UHGV virus genome: UHGV-0175496
Reading direction: 5' to 3' (one strand)
DNA from: a virus
Length of the DNA: 39,037 nt
Each line of letters starts with the position of its first letter. Position 1 is the stretch's first letter. A program made the translations under genes and the position numbers. Below the pieces are notes generated by a model. It was not told the origin of the DNA, did no database searches, and saw nothing but the letters and a program-made list of their open reading frames with translations. Positions 18,569 through 37,681 of the stretch are shown here, piece by piece.

Positions 18569-19087
18569 ATGAATCATCAATTGGCTAATCTCGATTTCCG
18601 GGACATGGTGGTTGTTTCTGGTGATCGCGTGATCACAACCTCCCGCAAGGTAGCAGCTTACTTCGACAAGCAGCATCACCACATCATTCAGAAAATCGAA
18701 AAGCTAGACTGTTCGGATGAATTTCTAACCAGCAACTTTTCGCGGGTTACCTATGAACACAAGGGTAATCAGTATGTTGAATATGAAATTTCCAAAGACG
18801 GCGCGATGTACATCATCATGTCGTTTACCGGCAAAAAAGCTGCCGCCATCAAAGAGGCGTTTATCAAAGCATTTAATTGGATGCGTGACAGGCTGATGGA
18901 GATGGCTCACTCATACCAAAGAGAGCACAACGAGTTAATGCTGGAGTTCATGAAGGAAAAGGATGTTGCCAGTATGTCAGGACGCTTGCTGAACCGCTGG
19001 GGCAGGATCAAAAAACCGCAACTCATAGCAAGAATCGAAAGGCTTGAGCAGCAGGCGCAAATATCGATCCCCGGACTGCCAAAGTGA
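18569..19087 (+). CDS. rha: Rha-family phage regulatory protein
   Basis: 172 aa; N-terminal VVSGDRVITTSRKVAAYFDKQHHHIIQKIEKL is typical of the Rha domain; sits between lysis and packaging genes as rha does in P22. Confidence 0.75.
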   Translation: MNHQLANLDFRDMVVVSGDRVITTSRKVAAYFDKQHHHIIQKIEKLDCSDEFLTSNFSRVTYEHKGNQYVEYEISKDGAMYIIMSFTGKKAAAIKEAFIKAFNWMRDRLMEMAHSYQREHNELMLEFMKEKDVASMSGRLLNRWGRIKKPQLIARIERLEQQAQISIPGLPK

Positions 19088-32117: not shown

Positions 32118-34511
32118 ATGGCTAATTACCGTGATTTGTTAGAGCAGGCTGGCGCACGTTACGGTGTGCCAGAAGGGTTGATGACTGCACTGGGTGCCAA
32201 GGAGTCTTCTTACAACCCTGCCGCAGTAAGCTCCGCCGGGGCTGTAGGATTGACTCAGGTCATGCCTGGGACATGGCGTGATATGGGTTATACCGATGAG
32301 CAAATGCAAAACCCCGAATATCAGGCTGACGCTGGCGCGCGCTATCTGGCAAAGATGTACCAGCAGTTTGGTAACTGGCGTGACGCTCTTCAGGCTTATC
32401 ACGACGGTCCCGGCAACGTTATGAAGGCAAAGCGTGGTGAATATACGCCAGGACCTGAAGGCCGCGGTTACGTTGATGATCGCTTTGCTCAATGGGCGGG
32501 TGACCCGGTGACAGACTCAACAGTCGAACAGCGCGCCACCTCTGCAAAGGTACATCCTCAGCAAGACCCTAACAACCCGTTTGCACAACTGGAAGTACAG
32601 TCATCCGAACAAGTATCGGCATCAGGTGTGCAGTCAGACCCAAATAATCCATTTGCTCAGATTGAGCAGCAGGCAGCCAGTCAGCAGCCACCTCAACCCG
32701 TAAGTTCCGTCGCACCGAAACCTGTTCAGCAGCAAGGCGGAATAATGTCTGACCTTGGTAATGGACTTGCTGAAACCGGGCGCGGCTTACTACAGGCAGG
32801 AATCAACGTAGCGAACATACCTGCTGAACTCACTGATGCTGTAACAAGCGCGGCGGCTTGGGCTGGCGGTAAACTCGGCATTGGCGATGGTACATATCAA
32901 CCAGCGCCACGAGTAACAACGCAGGGATTAGAGCAGGACTTTGGCCTTCAGCAAGGCGCGCTGACTCCACAAACTACAGAGGGCAGGGTATTTGCTGAGG
33001 CATTGCCTTACCTCACTCCTGCTGGCATTGAGAGAGCGGCAACACAGGCACCAACACTTGCTGGTCGAATTGCTCAGGGGGCAACTCGCCTTCTAGCAGA
33101 AAACGCAGTCGGATCACTTGCTGCAAATAGTGCGAAAGATGATGCGGAAGCACTCGCCACCGATTTAGGCGTTGGTGTACTTGCTGGCGGTGCTATTAAC
33201 GCTGCCGGACGTGGATTAGGTGCTGCTTATCGTGGCGTTAGTGGTGCTATCGCGCCAGAAGCACAGCAGGCTATCAGATTTGCAGAGCGTGAAGGCGTTC
33301 CTCTGCACACCACAGACCTGTTACAACCCACTTCCCGCGTCGGAAAAATGGCGCAGACTACAGCAGAAAATATCCCTCTGGCTGGCACAAGCGGAATGAG
33401 AGCAACGCAACAGGAAGCGAGAAGCCAGTTGGTGCAGAGATTTGCTGATAAATTCGGTGAGTATGATCCAGCTGTTGTTATTGACAGCCTTAAAGCGAAA
33501 ACATCAGGAATTCGTCGTGCTGCAGGGAACCGTCTTGAGCAGGTTCAGAATGCTATGGCTGGAGTAAACATTCAGCCTGCGCGAGCAATTCAGCAGATTG
33601 ATACAGAAATATCTAACCTGCAGAAGCTTGGTAAGGTTGCTGATAACGAGACAATTTCAAAACTTCAGTCATATCGTGATGAGCTTGTTCGCAATGCTGG
33701 CCCTGATGGCCCGGTAAATCTGGATTTGAAGCAATTAAGCGACCTGCGCAGCCAGTTCAGAATGGACGTGAAGGGTGAGCGACCAGTGTTACCAAACCGT
33801 TCCGATGCTGCCATTCAGCGCGTTTACAAGGCAATGACTGACGATATCAATGGTGCCATTGGTCAGAATCTTGGCAACGATACTCTCCGTAAATATCAGC
33901 AGGCCAATGCCGTCTACGCTGACGAAGCGGCGAAACTAAAGAATACCAGGCTGAAGAATGTTCTCATGAAAGGCGACCTGACGCCGGAAGTTGTCAACAA
34001 CATGCTATTCAGCAAGAACAAATCGGAAATTAAGACGCTGTATAACTCAGTTGGTCGTGTTGGCAGGGCGCAAATGCGCAATGGCATCATTGGAAAGGCG
34101 ATGGAGAAATCTGGCGGATCCCCTGACCAGTTCCTTCGGCAGCTTAACATCCTGCAAAACCAGACTGGCATCACATTTAAGGGGCAGGACGCTGCTTATC
34201 TGAAAGGATTAAAAAACTATCTGCAATCCACGCAGCAGGCTGCAAAAGCGGCAGTAACAACACCCACAGGGCAGCAAACCATCCCGTTCATTATCGGATA
34301 TGGGACGGCAATGAACCCGGCGACAACTGGCGCAGCAGTAAGCTACGGCCTTCTTGCTCGCGCCTATGAGAGTAAGCCATTCAGAGATGCAATGCTACGA
34401 ATGGCAAACACACCACGCGGATCAACAGCGTTTGAGAAAGCCATGCAGCAGGCACAAAAGGCAATTAACGCTATGACGCAGGGGGCTAAGTCTGATGCAT
34501 TGTCAGAATAG
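32118..34511 (+). CDS. Ejection protein (gp16 position) with an N-terminal soluble lytic transglycosylase domain
   Basis: 797 aa; N-terminus carries the SLT family signature GAKESSYNPAAVSSAGAVGLTQVMPGTWRDMGY...QAYHDGPGNV. Confidence 0.7.
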   Translation: MANYRDLLEQAGARYGVPEGLMTALGAKESSYNPAAVSSAGAVGLTQVMPGTWRDMGYTDEQMQNPEYQADAGARYLAKMYQQFGNWRDALQAYHDGPGNVMKAKRGEYTPGPEGRGYVDDRFAQWAGDPVTDSTVEQRATSAKVHPQQDPNNPFAQLEVQSSEQVSASGVQSDPNNPFAQIEQQAASQQPPQPVSSVAPKPVQQQGGIMSDLGNGLAETGRGLLQAGINVANIPAELTDAVTSAAAWAGGKLGIGDGTYQPAPRVTTQGLEQDFGLQQGALTPQTTEGRVFAEALPYLTPAGIERAATQAPTLAGRIAQGATRLLAENAVGSLAANSAKDDAEALATDLGVGVLAGGAINAAGRGLGAAYRGVSGAIAPEAQQAIRFAEREGVPLHTTDLLQPTSRVGKMAQTTAENIPLAGTSGMRATQQEARSQLVQRFADKFGEYDPAVVIDSLKAKTSGIRRAAGNRLEQVQNAMAGVNIQPARAIQQIDTEISNLQKLGKVADNETISKLQSYRDELVRNAGPDGPVNLDLKQLSDLRSQFRMDVKGERPVLPNRSDAAIQRVYKAMTDDINGAIGQNLGNDTLRKYQQANAVYADEAAKLKNTRLKNVLMKGDLTPEVVNNMLFSKNKSEIKTLYNSVGRVGRAQMRNGIIGKAMEKSGGSPDQFLRQLNILQNQTGITFKGQDAAYLKGLKNYLQSTQQAAKAAVTTPTGQQTIPFIIGYGTAMNPATTGAAVSYGLLARAYESKPFRDAMLRMANTPRGSTAFEKAMQQAQKAINAMTQGAKSDALSE

Positions 34512-34601
34512 CTTTTCAAACACCAGGAACGTGCAAAAACCAAATATGTAGAACGCGAGGTTTATCGTATCCCTCTGCATAGGCGATACCTTTGCTGATT
34601 G

Positions 34602-35087
34602 TTATCTGATGTTACTGCTACTGTTGCATGTGACTGTATTTCCAAACCCTGAATTGCAGTTTGTGTAAGTGTCAACTCGTGTTGGATAGGGTTGAGTTAT
34701 AACAGGCTGTCTCGCTTTTTGCTCGATCGCTTGCATTGTGTTTACAGCCTGATAATTCAATAAAGCCTGCTGGAATGCTTGGCTTTGTGCTATTTGTTGG
34801 GTTTGTTCTTGGCTTTGTAATTGAACATAAAGATTCTGAAGCTCAAGTCTTGCCTGTGCGTCACTTATTTTACCTTCATCAACACCTTGCCCGAGCATCT
34901 TTGCAGCAAGGACATACAGCTTAGGTGTTGGTGCAGACGCCATGCGTGAGTCGTTCTTTACACTGGCATCAAGGCAATTAGCCATATCGCTAAGCTTTTG
35001 ATAGCGTTGTTCGCAACTTGCTTGATAGTCACTTACTTTTGCGCATCCAACCAGCAGAAGAGGGATAATTAACAGTGATTTTTTCAT
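34602..35087 (-). CDS. Lipoprotein of unknown function in the immI-equivalent region (candidate exclusion or conversion factor)
   Basis: 161 aa from ATG 35085-35087 (AGGAG upstream); MKKSLLIIPLLLVGC lipobox signal peptide; Q-rich helical middle; Cys-rich C-terminus. Opposite strand to the structural genes. Confidence 0.65.
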   Translation of the reverse strand: MKKSLLIIPLLLVGCAKVSDYQASCEQRYQKLSDMANCLDASVKNDSRMASAPTPKLYVLAAKMLGQGVDEGKISDAQARLELQNLYVQLQSQEQTQQIAQSQAFQQALLNYQAVNTMQAIEQKARQPVITQPYPTRVDTYTNCNSGFGNTVTCNSSSNIR

Positions 35088-35157
35088 ATGGTTAACTCTC
35101 CTTAGTTTTTCACCGGATATCATGAAGGCAATGCCATTTTAGCCGGAAACTAGATTT

Positions 35158-35424
35158 CTATGTTTCCTTTTTATTATTGCTATACATGGTCTTAAGCGTT
35201 TCAAAAACCATTCTCTTAACCATATCAGATTGTTGTTCTGCCATACGCTCTGCATCGTCAATGTAAACGGATGCAGAGCTTTGTTTAGCCAATGATTCTT
35301 CAATCGCTGCAATTATCTCTGAGTTCAGCGATCTGTTATTCATCTTCGCACGCTGTTTAATTTTCGCGTGGAGTTCATGCGGAAGTCTCAAGTGAAACTG
35401 CGCCTCGTCGTATTTGCTGTACAT
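35158..35424 (-). CDS. mnt: Mnt-like ribbon-helix-helix repressor
   Basis: About 88 aa; FHLRLPHELHAKIKQRAKMNNRSLNSEIIAAIEESL and C-terminal DDAERMAEQQSDMVKRMVFETLKTMY parallel P22 Mnt. Confidence 0.75.
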   Translation of the reverse strand: MYSKYDEAQFHLRLPHELHAKIKQRAKMNNRSLNSEIIAAIEESLAKQSSASVYIDDAERMAEQQSDMVKRMVFETLKTMYSNNKKET

Positions 35425-35545
35425 CCTTGATGCCTCACCAGTTGGGTGGAATGGCATCGTAACCTACTGGATAAATACTCAATAGTACCATTTCGGTATG
35501 CAATCACATCATGGTTGCATCATATCATTCGTCTGGAGCAATGAA

Positions 35546-37681
35546 ATGTCAGATATCACCGCAAATGTTGTGGTAAGCATGCCTTCGCAACTCTTCACTA
35601 TGGCGCGTTCTTTTAAAGCTGTAGCCAATGGCAAAATTTATATCGGTAAAATTGACACTGACCCTGTAAATCCTGAAAACCAGATTCAGGTTTATGTGGA
35701 GAACGAAGACGGCTCTCACGTTCCTGTATCGCAACCAATCATCATTAACGCTGCTGGTTACCCGGTATATAACGGACAGATTGCCAAATTCGTTACCGTG
35801 CAAGGCCATTCTATGGCTGTTTATGATGCGTATGGTACACAGCAGTTCTATTTTCCGAATGTGCTGAAGTATGACCCTGATCAACTCAGGTCTGAATTAT
35901 CAGCTCAGGGTGGAGATAAGATTGTTGGTAGTTCGTATGGCGGAACCGTCTATACAGACTACAGTCCATCAGAATTCATTAAGTTTGCAGAATTCACCGT
36001 CCCAACAAGTCTTTCAAACAATAGACAAGCCGTTAAATATATAGACGGATTTTGGTATGTATGGAATGGAACATTTCCATACAATACTGGAACGTCAAAT
36101 CCTGGTAATAATGACACATGGAAATGCGTTGGACTTCTAAATGGTTTTTCGGTTAATGACGCTCAGAACTTTGGCTTCACAGGGGGTATGGACGATGCAC
36201 TTCCAGCGCTAAATGCGATGATTAGAAGCCCATTTTTTGAAATGTTTTTCCCTATTGGAAGTGAAATTAATATTTCGTCTGACTGGAATCTCCGTTCAAA
36301 TTTATATATAAACTTTCACGGTTCAACAATCAACTGGATGGGTGCTGCTTTCTCAAGTTCTGATGTTGTGAATGGTAGCGAGATGGCCATTTTAAATACG
36401 CCAAATTTTTCAGGTGGAACTACAGGGGCACTCGTAAACCTTCATCTGTCAAACTTAAATATTAAAGCAAATGATTACGCAATAGGCATAAGTGCAAGGA
36501 ATATTACAAATTTCTCTATAGAGAATGTTTATGTAGAGAAAGCGCAACGTCAAGGAATTAATGTATCTAATTGCCAGAATGGATGTATTAATCAAATAAC
36601 TCTGAAAGATTGCTCTCCTTTATCTGATAAAGGATTTACTAGCTCACAGCTAGAGAGTTGGGGCGATGGATTGATTGTATGGTATGGAAGCACTAACGTA
36701 TCCATTGATAACATTAGAGTTGAATCAGGAAATAATTCACGAGGAGGTCGCTGCGGTATCTGTATCGATGGTTATGCTCCATCCGGAAAGCCAGATTCAC
36801 GCAATATTTCTGTGAATAACGCTTATGTTTACGGTTATGACAGGCCTATACATACCGAACTATGCGGTATTGTTACCGTAACTAACAGTGTTTTCGAATA
36901 CAACTCAGGCTCTGACACGCATCACTTTTTGCAATGTGGTGTCGTCGTGTGGAATGTCCTTGAAACCACTACTTTTATCAACTGCACGTTTCGCACAGAT
37001 ATGCGGTTTATGAAAAACTCAGGCGCTAAGGCGAAATTCATAAAATGTAATGTGTACAAAACATCAAGCACTGAGCCTATGTTTATAACAGGTACAGAGC
37101 AAACAGGTATAGTTAATTTTGATGACTGCTTACTTTCTCATGCCGGTGGTGAATGGGGGGCTTGGAACTGTTCATTAAGTTTTAATGGTTGCACGATATC
37201 ATCTGATTCTGCTGGATCTGTTATTAATTTTGGTAGCGAATCCATACCAAAAAATATCACTATTGTTAATTCACATCTGTTAAACACATCAATATCAGCA
37301 CTGTTCGCACCTGGATTTACTGAAATTCATCTTTCTAATTCAACAATAAATGGAGATGTTAATTGCGGACCTTCTGCCAGACTTCGTGTAAATTCATGCG
37401 ATATATATGGAGTCGTTACATGCAATAGTGTAATGAGATACAACGGACAGAAACCAAATAAATTAATTTATTTGCAAAATGCAGACCAGCAATACAATGG
37501 CATGTGGCTAGGAACGCGCCCACCACTAGGTGCTAGACCAGATGGATCTGGAGATTGGTTGAGGGGTGATATAGTTTTTAATCTCGACGCCATAGAGTCA
37601 ACACCATTCCAATGGTATTGCGTAACCCCAGGATCGCCTGGAAGATGGGCTGTATCTGGAACTCTTGGCGCAGCTTCTTAA
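35546..37681 (+). CDS. Tailspike with P22-type head-binding N-terminal domain and a distinct receptor-binding domain
   Basis: About 711 aa from ATG 35546 (GGAG upstream). N-terminal ~110 aa ([47 protein letters not shown]...VLKYDPDQ) closely match the P22 gp9 head-binding domain; the rest differs and is rich in N/S/T/G beta-helix-like repeats. Confidence 0.9.

Follow-up and report, generated by a model that had tools for sequence, protein, structure and literature searches.

The window analysed here is the whole 39,037-nt stretch of UHGV virus genome UHGV-0175496, a P22-like (Lederbergvirus-type) Escherichia coli prophage whose late operon runs rightward and ends in three ejection-protein genes, and our subject is the interval (34602–35545) between the last of these genes and the tailspike gene, downstream of which lies the integrase gene. 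On balance we favour the reading that this interval is a reduced ant moron, that is an autoregulated Pmnt–mnt–lipoprotein unit expressed by the prophage, with a lipoprotein that acts on the envelope and with the inverted repeat in front of the tailspike gene as a separate element. The name 'ant moron' was given to the gene 16–gene 9 interval of P22-like phages by Villafane et al. (2008; PMC2629481), and the present interval belongs to it, as the homologues of gene 16 and gene 9 enclose variable non-morphogenetic genes that share sequence with other morons. The features of the locus are as follows.

32118–34511, plus strand: last ejection (DNA-transfer) gene, counterpart by position of P22 gene 16, its product having an SLT lytic transglycosylase domain at the N-terminus (Pfam SLT, 2.9e-25); left border of the moron
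34602–35087, minus strand: lipoprotein gene, 161 aa, within an open reading frame (ORF) at 34602–35123
35088–35157, minus strand: mnt–lipoprotein spacer, 70 bp, holding the lipoprotein Shine–Dalgarno sequence (about 35096–35103)
35158–35424, minus strand: mnt, 88 aa, Mnt-family ribbon-helix-helix repressor with a C-terminal tetramerisation helix
35456–35482, minus strand: predicted Pmnt, −35 TTGAGT at 35482–35477, −10 TACGAT at 35461–35456, 15-bp spacer
35485–35499: predicted Mnt operator GTACCATTTCGGTAT, of the form RTACC-N5-GGTAY, 2 bp from the Pmnt −35
35498–35520, plus strand: inverted repeat ATGCAATCA-CATCA-TGGTTGCAT, putative hairpin-forming element in the tailspike mRNA leader
35524–35552, minus strand: alternative leftward sigma-70-like site CTGACA-17-AATGAT with 9/12 consensus matches, of uncertain status
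35546–37681, plus strand: tailspike gene, at the P22 gene 9 position (Pfam Head_binding, 2.9e-67); right border of the moron

A first-pass annotation of this DNA had placed the lipoprotein and Mnt genes opposite to the structural operon, in an interval that in P22 holds sieA, mnt, arc and ant, and both points agree with what we find here and with the P22 annotation; its figure of about 120 bp between mnt and the tailspike gene is likewise close to the 121 bp measured from mnt to the tailspike ATG. Its claim that arc and ant are missing, so that Mnt has no antirepressor to control, holds in cis: tblastn of the whole window with P22 Ant, Arc and SieA, CUS-3 and Kapi1 Ant, and KilAC and Bro-N antirepressors gave no match at E < 0.1, and the ant gene under Mnt control elsewhere, which it had named as an observation that would count against its proposal, was not found in the window. 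An Rfam search of 34000–36200 at E ≤ 1 gave no match, sar RNA included, and there are no tRNAs in the window. A complete immI region has arc, ant and sar downstream of the operator, and the window lacks this set.

Our main argument for taking 35485–35499 as the Mnt operator is that the palindrome at this fixed position co-varies with the recognition strand of Mnt. Reading away from mnt, P22 has TATATT-CTCAAT-A-GGTCCACGGTGGACC, where the Pmnt −35 appears as its complement CTCAAT and the annotated operator is the palindrome; in the same register the window has TAAATA-CTCAAT-A-GTACCATTTCGGTAT, and as far as sequence evidence goes the geometry of operator and Pmnt −35 matches that of P22 O_mnt. 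The pattern RTACC-N5-GGTAY occurs once in the window, against 0.02 occurrences expected by chance. The Mnt proteins of the window and P22 align over 76 residues with 46% identity, their recognition strands being AQFHLRL and PHFNFRM respectively, and the palindromes sort by this strand. Proteins with PHFNFRM (P22, epsilon34 and Pluralibacter) go with GGTCCAC-N-GTGGACC, and those with PQFNLRL or TQFNLRL (Gally, ST64T, ST160, Proteus Brookers, Providencia and Symbiopectobacterium) with AGACCAC-N-GTGGTCT, the right half of which is sometimes degenerate. AQFHLRL proteins (the window, Sf101, VSe13, Escherichia sp. E1V33, Buttiauxella and Serratia) go with GTACC(A/G)TTTNGGTA(T/C), the Citrobacter locus of the same strand having GTACTATTTCGGTAT with one left-arm base changed, and the V6 protein of Erwinia tracheiphila (L064) and the PQFRIRL protein of Pantoea sp. 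1.19 (L039) go with CCCCACGGTGGGG. On this comparison 35485–35499 is most likely the Mnt operator. The search of the window for an Mnt operator half-site that the first-pass annotation had suggested is thus answered by this single site, but not by the repeat on which that annotation had remarked; neither a second Mnt operator nor an ant gene under Mnt control was found in the window or in a related Serratia locus (L025). In two IMG/VR loci (L124 and L154) the right half-site is altered by G>T (GTACCATTTCTGTAT) and the spacer is otherwise identical; these are natural operator variants.

Both domains expected of an Mnt repressor are present in the protein. The N-terminal Arc-like ribbon-helix-helix domain is matched by Pfam Arc (PF03869, 1.1e-14) and by PDB 1MNT (1.5e-18, residues 6–78), and the C-terminal coiled-coil tetramerisation domain by Pfam Repressor_Mnt (PF11423, 4e-11) and by PDB 1QEY (2.9e-6, residues 56–83). 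Selection on mnt was estimated from 80 of 107 IMG/VR loci, fetched through exact flanks around the repeat and operator. The ORF is intact in about 74 of 78 loci, and the ratio of non-synonymous to synonymous polymorphism (pN/pS) is 0.14–0.17 overall and 0.05–0.09 in the DNA-binding domain; these estimates indicate that the orphan mnt is under purifying selection and is no decaying remnant. In E. coli SCPM-O-B-8794 (L024) the recognition strand carries a Q>L change (AQLHLRL), and the tailspike frame of the same locus (about 2370–2400) is broken a few codons past the ATG by inserted DNA (…ATGTCAGATATCACC/TACCATGATTCTCATG…).

The Pmnt of the window was read from its sequence and from alignment to the annotated P22 promoter, and is a prediction only. 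The hexamers are kept across the Mnt classes as TTGnnn, 17 bp and TAnnAT (TATCAT, TATGAT, TAAGAT or TACGAT), the equivalents being TTGTTG-17-TACGAT in VSe13-type loci, TTGTGG-17-TATGAT in ST64T and TTGAGA-17-TATCAT in P22. The 15-bp spacer of the window comes from a 2-bp deletion relative to the VSe13 type (CGTAACC against CGTAAAACC; VSe13 is L001, 2868–2910) and is common to all of the approximately 100 loci of the window/Sf101/IME10 lineage. On the other strand the rightward Pant hexamers are degraded, the TTGACA-17-TATATT of P22 standing against TAAATA and no usable −35 in the window. A consensus scan of the region gave two weak minus-strand promoter sites, which is not above shuffled sequence (mean 2.7), and no terminators. 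P22 Mnt bound at the O_mnt position reportedly represses Pant and favours Pmnt, a finding credited to Vershon et al. in 1987.

As to the second gene of the unit, neither a credible promoter nor a terminator was found in the 70-bp mnt–lipoprotein spacer by consensus and hexamer scans, and because of this we take the two genes to be probably co-transcribed. Gene order in other hosts points the same way, since mnt–lipoprotein operons are met again in Proteus, in Yersinia and in E. coli O104:H4. In Yersinia and in Proteus phage Brookers the lipoprotein gene lies 15–17 bp behind mnt, and in E. coli O104:H4, which has a full mnt–arc–ant set, it lies 15–25 bp behind a small hypothetical gene that overlaps mnt. 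Tatumella has the lipoprotein gene with a full mnt–arc–ant set, Serratia has it beside a Bro-N gene, and Morganella has it alone, preceded by a 3′ stump of mnt. This stump (L013, 3960–4000) consists of the last 30 nt or so of mnt (…GCTATATAATGATAAAAAATAA), identical to the end of the Brookers gene (L010, 2020–2060), so that mnt was deleted there and the lipoprotein gene kept. The Morganella lipoprotein gene has a new promoter-like site, TTTACA-17-AATGAT.

The lipoprotein itself satisfies the bacterial lipoprotein criterion, its signal peptide ending in the lipobox MKKSLLIIPLLLVG-C15 (LVG before C15), and lipidation is predicted; Cys15 is invariant in 32 aligned homologues, and the Ala at +2 predicts sorting to the outer membrane. 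The rest of the protein comprises a helical domain (about residues 18–96), a Gln-rich helix and a C-terminal Cys-bracketed beta-hairpin. Homologues keep Cys15, Cys25, Cys38 and Cys154 and a helical core ending in …DAQARLELQNLYV, followed by the Gln-rich stretch and a variable hairpin, with C-termini of the two types …TNCNSGFGNTVTCNSSSNIR and …TTNCTTYGNQTRCQSY. The gene is intact in 39 of 40 related loci, and pN/pS over 40 intact sequences (that of the window included) is 0.058, a value indicative of purifying selection. The protein falls in phrog_6067, a PHROG that has no assigned function; there is no Pfam or PADLOC match, nor a match to a characterised exclusion or defence family among the annotated PHROGs and PADLOC. 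The sole NCBIfam match, to GspK, scores 19 bits where the cut-off is 130, and that identity was rejected. Close homologues form 94 clusters at 90% identity, restricted to Enterobacterales, and wherever the context is readable they sit in the ant moron of a P22-like prophage. A profile search of 1.84 billion representatives enlarged the family: about 250 clusters at 50% identity share its architecture, and none of them carries a name or a Pfam domain. Of three distant members with a readable context, one follows a cI-like repressor gene, in the same orientation, in a lambdoid immunity region, and another is on a phage contig near a small terminase gene.

Placement behind lysogeny repressors, and at the position of P22 sieA, suits a role for the lipoprotein that is prophage-made and exerted on the envelope, and what we have fits this; that it is a superinfection-exclusion factor is possible by analogy, and is a guess. 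A second, unrelated lipoprotein of 139 aa (MKRIIGVVAGAILLSGC…; epsilon34 gp15) is encoded rightward in the ant morons of Gally (L002, 2323–2742) and epsilon34 (L006, 2760–3179), and lipoproteins seem to be a favoured cargo at the ant-moron locus.

Put together, the favoured reading would run as follows. The arc–ant–sar half of the moron, with its strong Pant, would have gone, leaving a leftward Pmnt–mnt–lipoprotein unit that is expressed by the prophage. Pmnt would drive mnt and then the lipoprotein gene 70 bp downstream, and Mnt, a predicted tetrameric ribbon-helix-helix repressor, would bind GTACCATTTCGGTAT just upstream of the Pmnt −35 and so set the level of its own transcript and thereby that of the lipoprotein. 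In the prophage, Mnt would also sit on the sole site through which rightward transcription can enter the tailspike leader. The lipoprotein would be exported, lipidated at Cys15 and sorted to the outer membrane facing the periplasm, where it would act on the envelope to the benefit of the lysogen, our leading guess being P22-like superinfection exclusion at the stage of DNA delivery. The repeat would form a separate hairpin in the tailspike mRNA leader, a Sf6-type inheritance. DNA binding by Mnt, use of the promoters, co-transcription, and the location and function of the lipoprotein are inferred; among the roles that the first-pass annotation had offered for Mnt, regulation of itself and of the lipoprotein is the best supported.

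Several points weigh against this picture. Among the classifiable window-type loci 47 of 65 are mnt-only, so driving the lipoprotein cannot be the reason for keeping mnt; with such loci in the majority Mnt must be useful alone, through control of tailspike transcription or through repression of an antirepressor in trans. Retrieval by exact operator flanks biases operator conservation, although it leaves the coding-sequence estimates unbiased. A 15-bp spacer is poor for sigma-70, and the leftward site at 35552–35524 could be the real promoter, with transcription starting upstream of the operator; in that case Mnt would be a downstream roadblock and therefore a negative autoregulator. As the rightward Pant-like promoter seems inactive, Mnt may have little transcription in that direction to block. 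No relative of known function matches the lipoprotein by sequence or by fold (PDB included), and the third distant homologue with a readable context lies in an ordinary chromosomal neighbourhood.

A bolder reading, which we put forward only tentatively, would give the orphan Mnt–operator pair a role unrelated to antirepressor control, as an insulator or dosage valve for tailspike transcription, and would make the lipoprotein the founder of a new phage-borne outer-membrane family, often encoded behind lysogeny repressors, that could exclude superinfecting podoviruses by disturbing the ejection-protein conduit from the periplasm. Alternatively, the orphan Mnt might act as an immunity factor in trans: where P22-like phages of the same operator class superinfect the cell or share it, Mnt would repress their ant promoter and so keep a foreign antirepressor from inducing the resident prophage. 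It is established for immI (the P22 region is described in PMC2629481) that Mnt of a P22 prophage represses ant on an incoming genome; complete mnt–arc–ant sets do coexist in E. coli prophages, and the strong purifying selection on mnt even where it stands alone would also be accounted for. However, no arc–ant unit lies behind GTACC-N5-GGTAY in the phage database, the genome survey or the IMG/VR loci, and the lack of an ant gene behind the operator class of the window weakens the idea, which we consider unlikely. In Serratia marcescens (L025, 783–3431) an AQFHLRL-type mnt is convergent with KilAC-like and Bro-N antirepressor genes, but these are driven from a separate ribbon-helix-helix gene pair with a different promoter, and the sole operator copy is upstream of mnt. 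The 96-aa protein annotated as an 'antirepressor' in VSe13 (L001, 2261–2551) is the C-terminal remnant of a KilAC-like gene. Within the window the sole gene loosely of regulator or antirepressor type is a Rha-family gene (18569–19087, plus strand, 172 aa; Pfam Phage_pRha and ORF11CD3) between the lysis genes and the terminase, and there is no Mnt-operator-like site nearby.

We give about as little credit to the proposal that the lipoprotein is a passenger and that Mnt, on its operator 47 nt ahead of the tailspike ATG, acts with leftward transcription from Pmnt to tune how much of the late-operon transcription reaches the tailspike gene in lytic growth. In four independent orphan lineages the operator holds its place directly before the tailspike leader, most loci are mnt-only, and an effect of the P22 ant moron on P-late read-through into gene 9, with Mnt and Arc perhaps involved, has been suggested (PMC2629481); yet Sf6-type phages manage without any moron, and a ribbon-helix-helix tetramer is not known to halt Q-modified polymerase. 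That mnt and its operator are instead the dead leftover of a decayed immI, with the lipoprotein gene an independent moron having its own promoter, is improbable. The phage L paper (PMC8022706) leaves this remnant option for its mnt homologue, HK620 has only annotated mnt and ant remnants, and both the degraded Pant-like promoter and the 15-bp Pmnt spacer would suit decay, but the constraint on the DNA-binding domain and an ORF intact in about 95% of loci speak against it, as do operator half-sites that are kept in step with the recognition strand and a layout that is the commonest among relatives.

The first-pass annotation had noticed an inverted repeat, ATGCAA-N11-TTGCAT, between mnt and the tailspike gene. 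The repeat is real (35498–35520) and extends to 9-nt arms with one T.G position; a match with at most one mismatch anywhere in the window is reached in 27 of 100 shuffles, so that its significance rests on comparison with related sequences and not on statistics within the window. The form (A/G)TGCAA-N11-TTGCAT lies about 35 nt before the tailspike ATG in Sf6 and in eight Sf6-type loci, in which no gene lies between the ejection gene and the tailspike gene, hence neither mnt nor a moron, and conversely VSe13-type loci share the Mnt recognition strand of the window but lack the repeat and have a P22-type leader instead. The tie between repeat and Mnt that the annotation had implied does not survive this comparison; a different palindrome, GTACC-N5-GGTAT, occupies the operator position. 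Among 80 window-type loci the nine-pair stem varies at the T.G position (G>A and T>C), at two C–G pairs (C>T) and at one A–T pair (A>G), in each case leaving a Watson–Crick or G.U pair on the plus strand; one further change, A>T, disrupts the pair that closes the loop. Two compensatory changes occur together in Escherichia sp. E1V33 (ATTCAA…TTGAAT). Over 13 distinct leader sequences 94% of cells pair, a value reached by 1 of 500 shuffles, and their covariation score is reached by 25 of 500. Folding energy is not significant for the window hairpin (z about −0.8), and the case for a hairpin therefore rests on the substitution patterns. Two of the 13 sequences are Sf6-type, with a predicted fold that is a longer hairpin having TTGCAT in its loop; because their minimum-energy fold differs, the Sf6-type sequences show homology of the leader and not the same pairing. 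We conclude that the repeat belongs to the tailspike leader and is independent of Mnt, and that it is probably inherited from a Sf6-type leader. That it is the Mnt operator, or a second one, is scarcely credible: it lies in the mnt–tailspike spacer and shares 2 bp with the predicted operator, but it is present in loci that have no mnt and missing from others with the same recognition strand, its 17-bp arm-centre spacing is unlike that of Mnt operators, and its substitutions obey RNA pairing rules.

The longer Sf6-type leader hairpin (GCAAUGCCGG…CCG(G)CAUUGC; located at 515–560 in Sf6, L289, and at about 1430–1480 in L158) has an energy of −23 to −24 kcal/mol with z from −3.1 to −3.8, none of 200 shuffles being as stable, and the P22-type leader can form CCGUAGC-CAC-GCUGCGG (z = −2.1). 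A hairpin-forming leader thus seems to be general to P22-like tailspike mRNAs, the repeat being the version of the window lineage. Candidate roles for the repeat are in mRNA stability, processing or the modulation of read-through.

To see how common the arrangement is, we took the 80 IMG/VR loci closest to the N-terminus of the window tailspike and classed them by what precedes the tailspike ATG. This is the orphan Mnt operator in 42 of the 80 loci, the ant terminator in 29, a Sf6-type leader and no moron in eight, and something else in one, which makes the orphan-Mnt layout the commonest. The window-type lineage divides into 47 loci with mnt alone (Sf101 and IME10 among the mnt-only members), 18 with mnt and the lipoprotein gene, and 15 that are unclassifiable. 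Among 5,426 complete E. coli genomes the window mnt with its spacer is found in 269, the lipoprotein gene in 186 (about 3%, including O104:H4 and O26 strains) and the window arrangement, with at least 80% of the 1,301-nt query covered, in 96. The first-pass annotation had presented the arrangement as unusual, but mnt-only morons have been published for ST64T, ST104 and Para1 (PMC2629481), and an orphan mnt for phage L, with another function and a remnant both left open (PMC8022706). The locus is a further member of a known and common class, and our new points are modest: the operator assignment, the selection on the orphan mnt, the recurrent mnt–lipoprotein operon, and a wide uncharacterised lipoprotein family. 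A literature search for an ant moron with a lipoprotein, and for Sf101 with Mnt, found no report. On the question of an Mnt without a target, raised in print for phage L, the present comparison argues for a functional repressor, and with an operator named the question of orphan Mnt is directly testable. Should the lipoprotein block P22-like phages, this would bear on phage host range and on phage therapy aimed at carrier strains; the basic picture of P22-like genome organisation is unchanged.

The gene calls on which all this depends agree with annotation elsewhere. PGAP gives the same three coding sequences (CDSs) with the same starts in the 98%-identical prophage of strain EC01307 (lipoprotein CDS of 486 nt), and counterparts of 32118–34511 are annotated as injection or DNA transfer protein in VSe13, Gally and EC01307. 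The lipoprotein start MKKSLLIIPLLLVGC is at 35087, with a Shine–Dalgarno sequence AAGGAGAG 8 nt upstream. A 99-aa Mnt starting at 35457 is unlikely, as GGTGAGG lies 8 nt before the ATG at 35424, PGAP uses the latter, and the ATG at 35457 is inside the predicted Pmnt −10. A tailspike start at 35498 (16 residues longer, in frame) is disfavoured by the Shine–Dalgarno sequence GGAG at 35535–35538 and by all homologues, both of which point to 35546. A 32-aa ORF with a GTG start in the mnt–tailspike spacer (35446–35544, plus strand) is unlike Arc and probably no gene.

Among named systems, the P22 interval opens with three genes of one orientation (sieA, orf59a and mnt) and continues through O_mnt, with its overlapping Pmnt and Pant, to arc, sar, ant and gene 9. 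The window is like P22 immI in having an Mnt with both domains, in the geometry of operator and Pmnt, and in the lysogen-expressed accessory genes that follow mnt; it differs in lacking the arc–ant target and the antisense RNA and in its degraded Pant-like hexamers, and for these reasons the second-immunity function is not expected of it. The product at the same locus and in the same orientation behind the ejection genes in P22 is SieA (PMC10883804), which is similar in size (164 against 161 aa) and, like the lipoprotein by prediction, located in the envelope and presumably expressed by the prophage. The two share no sequence similarity (tblastn against the window, E = 0.75), so the lipoprotein does not belong to the SieA family, and whereas SieA has transmembrane segments and is an inner-membrane protein, the lipoprotein has a lipobox and is predicted to be in the outer membrane with disulfides. 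The mnt-only morons (ST64T, ST104, Para1 and phage L) have in common with the window their position, an mnt on the opposite strand, the lack of arc, ant and sieA, a palindromic operator by the Pmnt −35 before the tailspike leader, and one extra small gene. They differ in the Mnt class (PQFNLRL with AGACCAC-N-GTGGTCT, against AQFHLRL with GTACC-N5-GGTAY), in the passenger (orf62 against the 161-aa lipoprotein) and in the tailspike leader (P22 type against Sf6 type). The prophage of E. coli O104:H4 2011C-3493 (mnt–hyp–lipoprotein / arc–ant–tailspike) has a lipoprotein gene of about 94% DNA identity to that of the window, and there too the gene follows an Mnt-like gene in an operon read leftward. 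That prophage retains a complete arc–ant and the extra small gene, however; with arc–ant removed, its layout would resemble that of the window.

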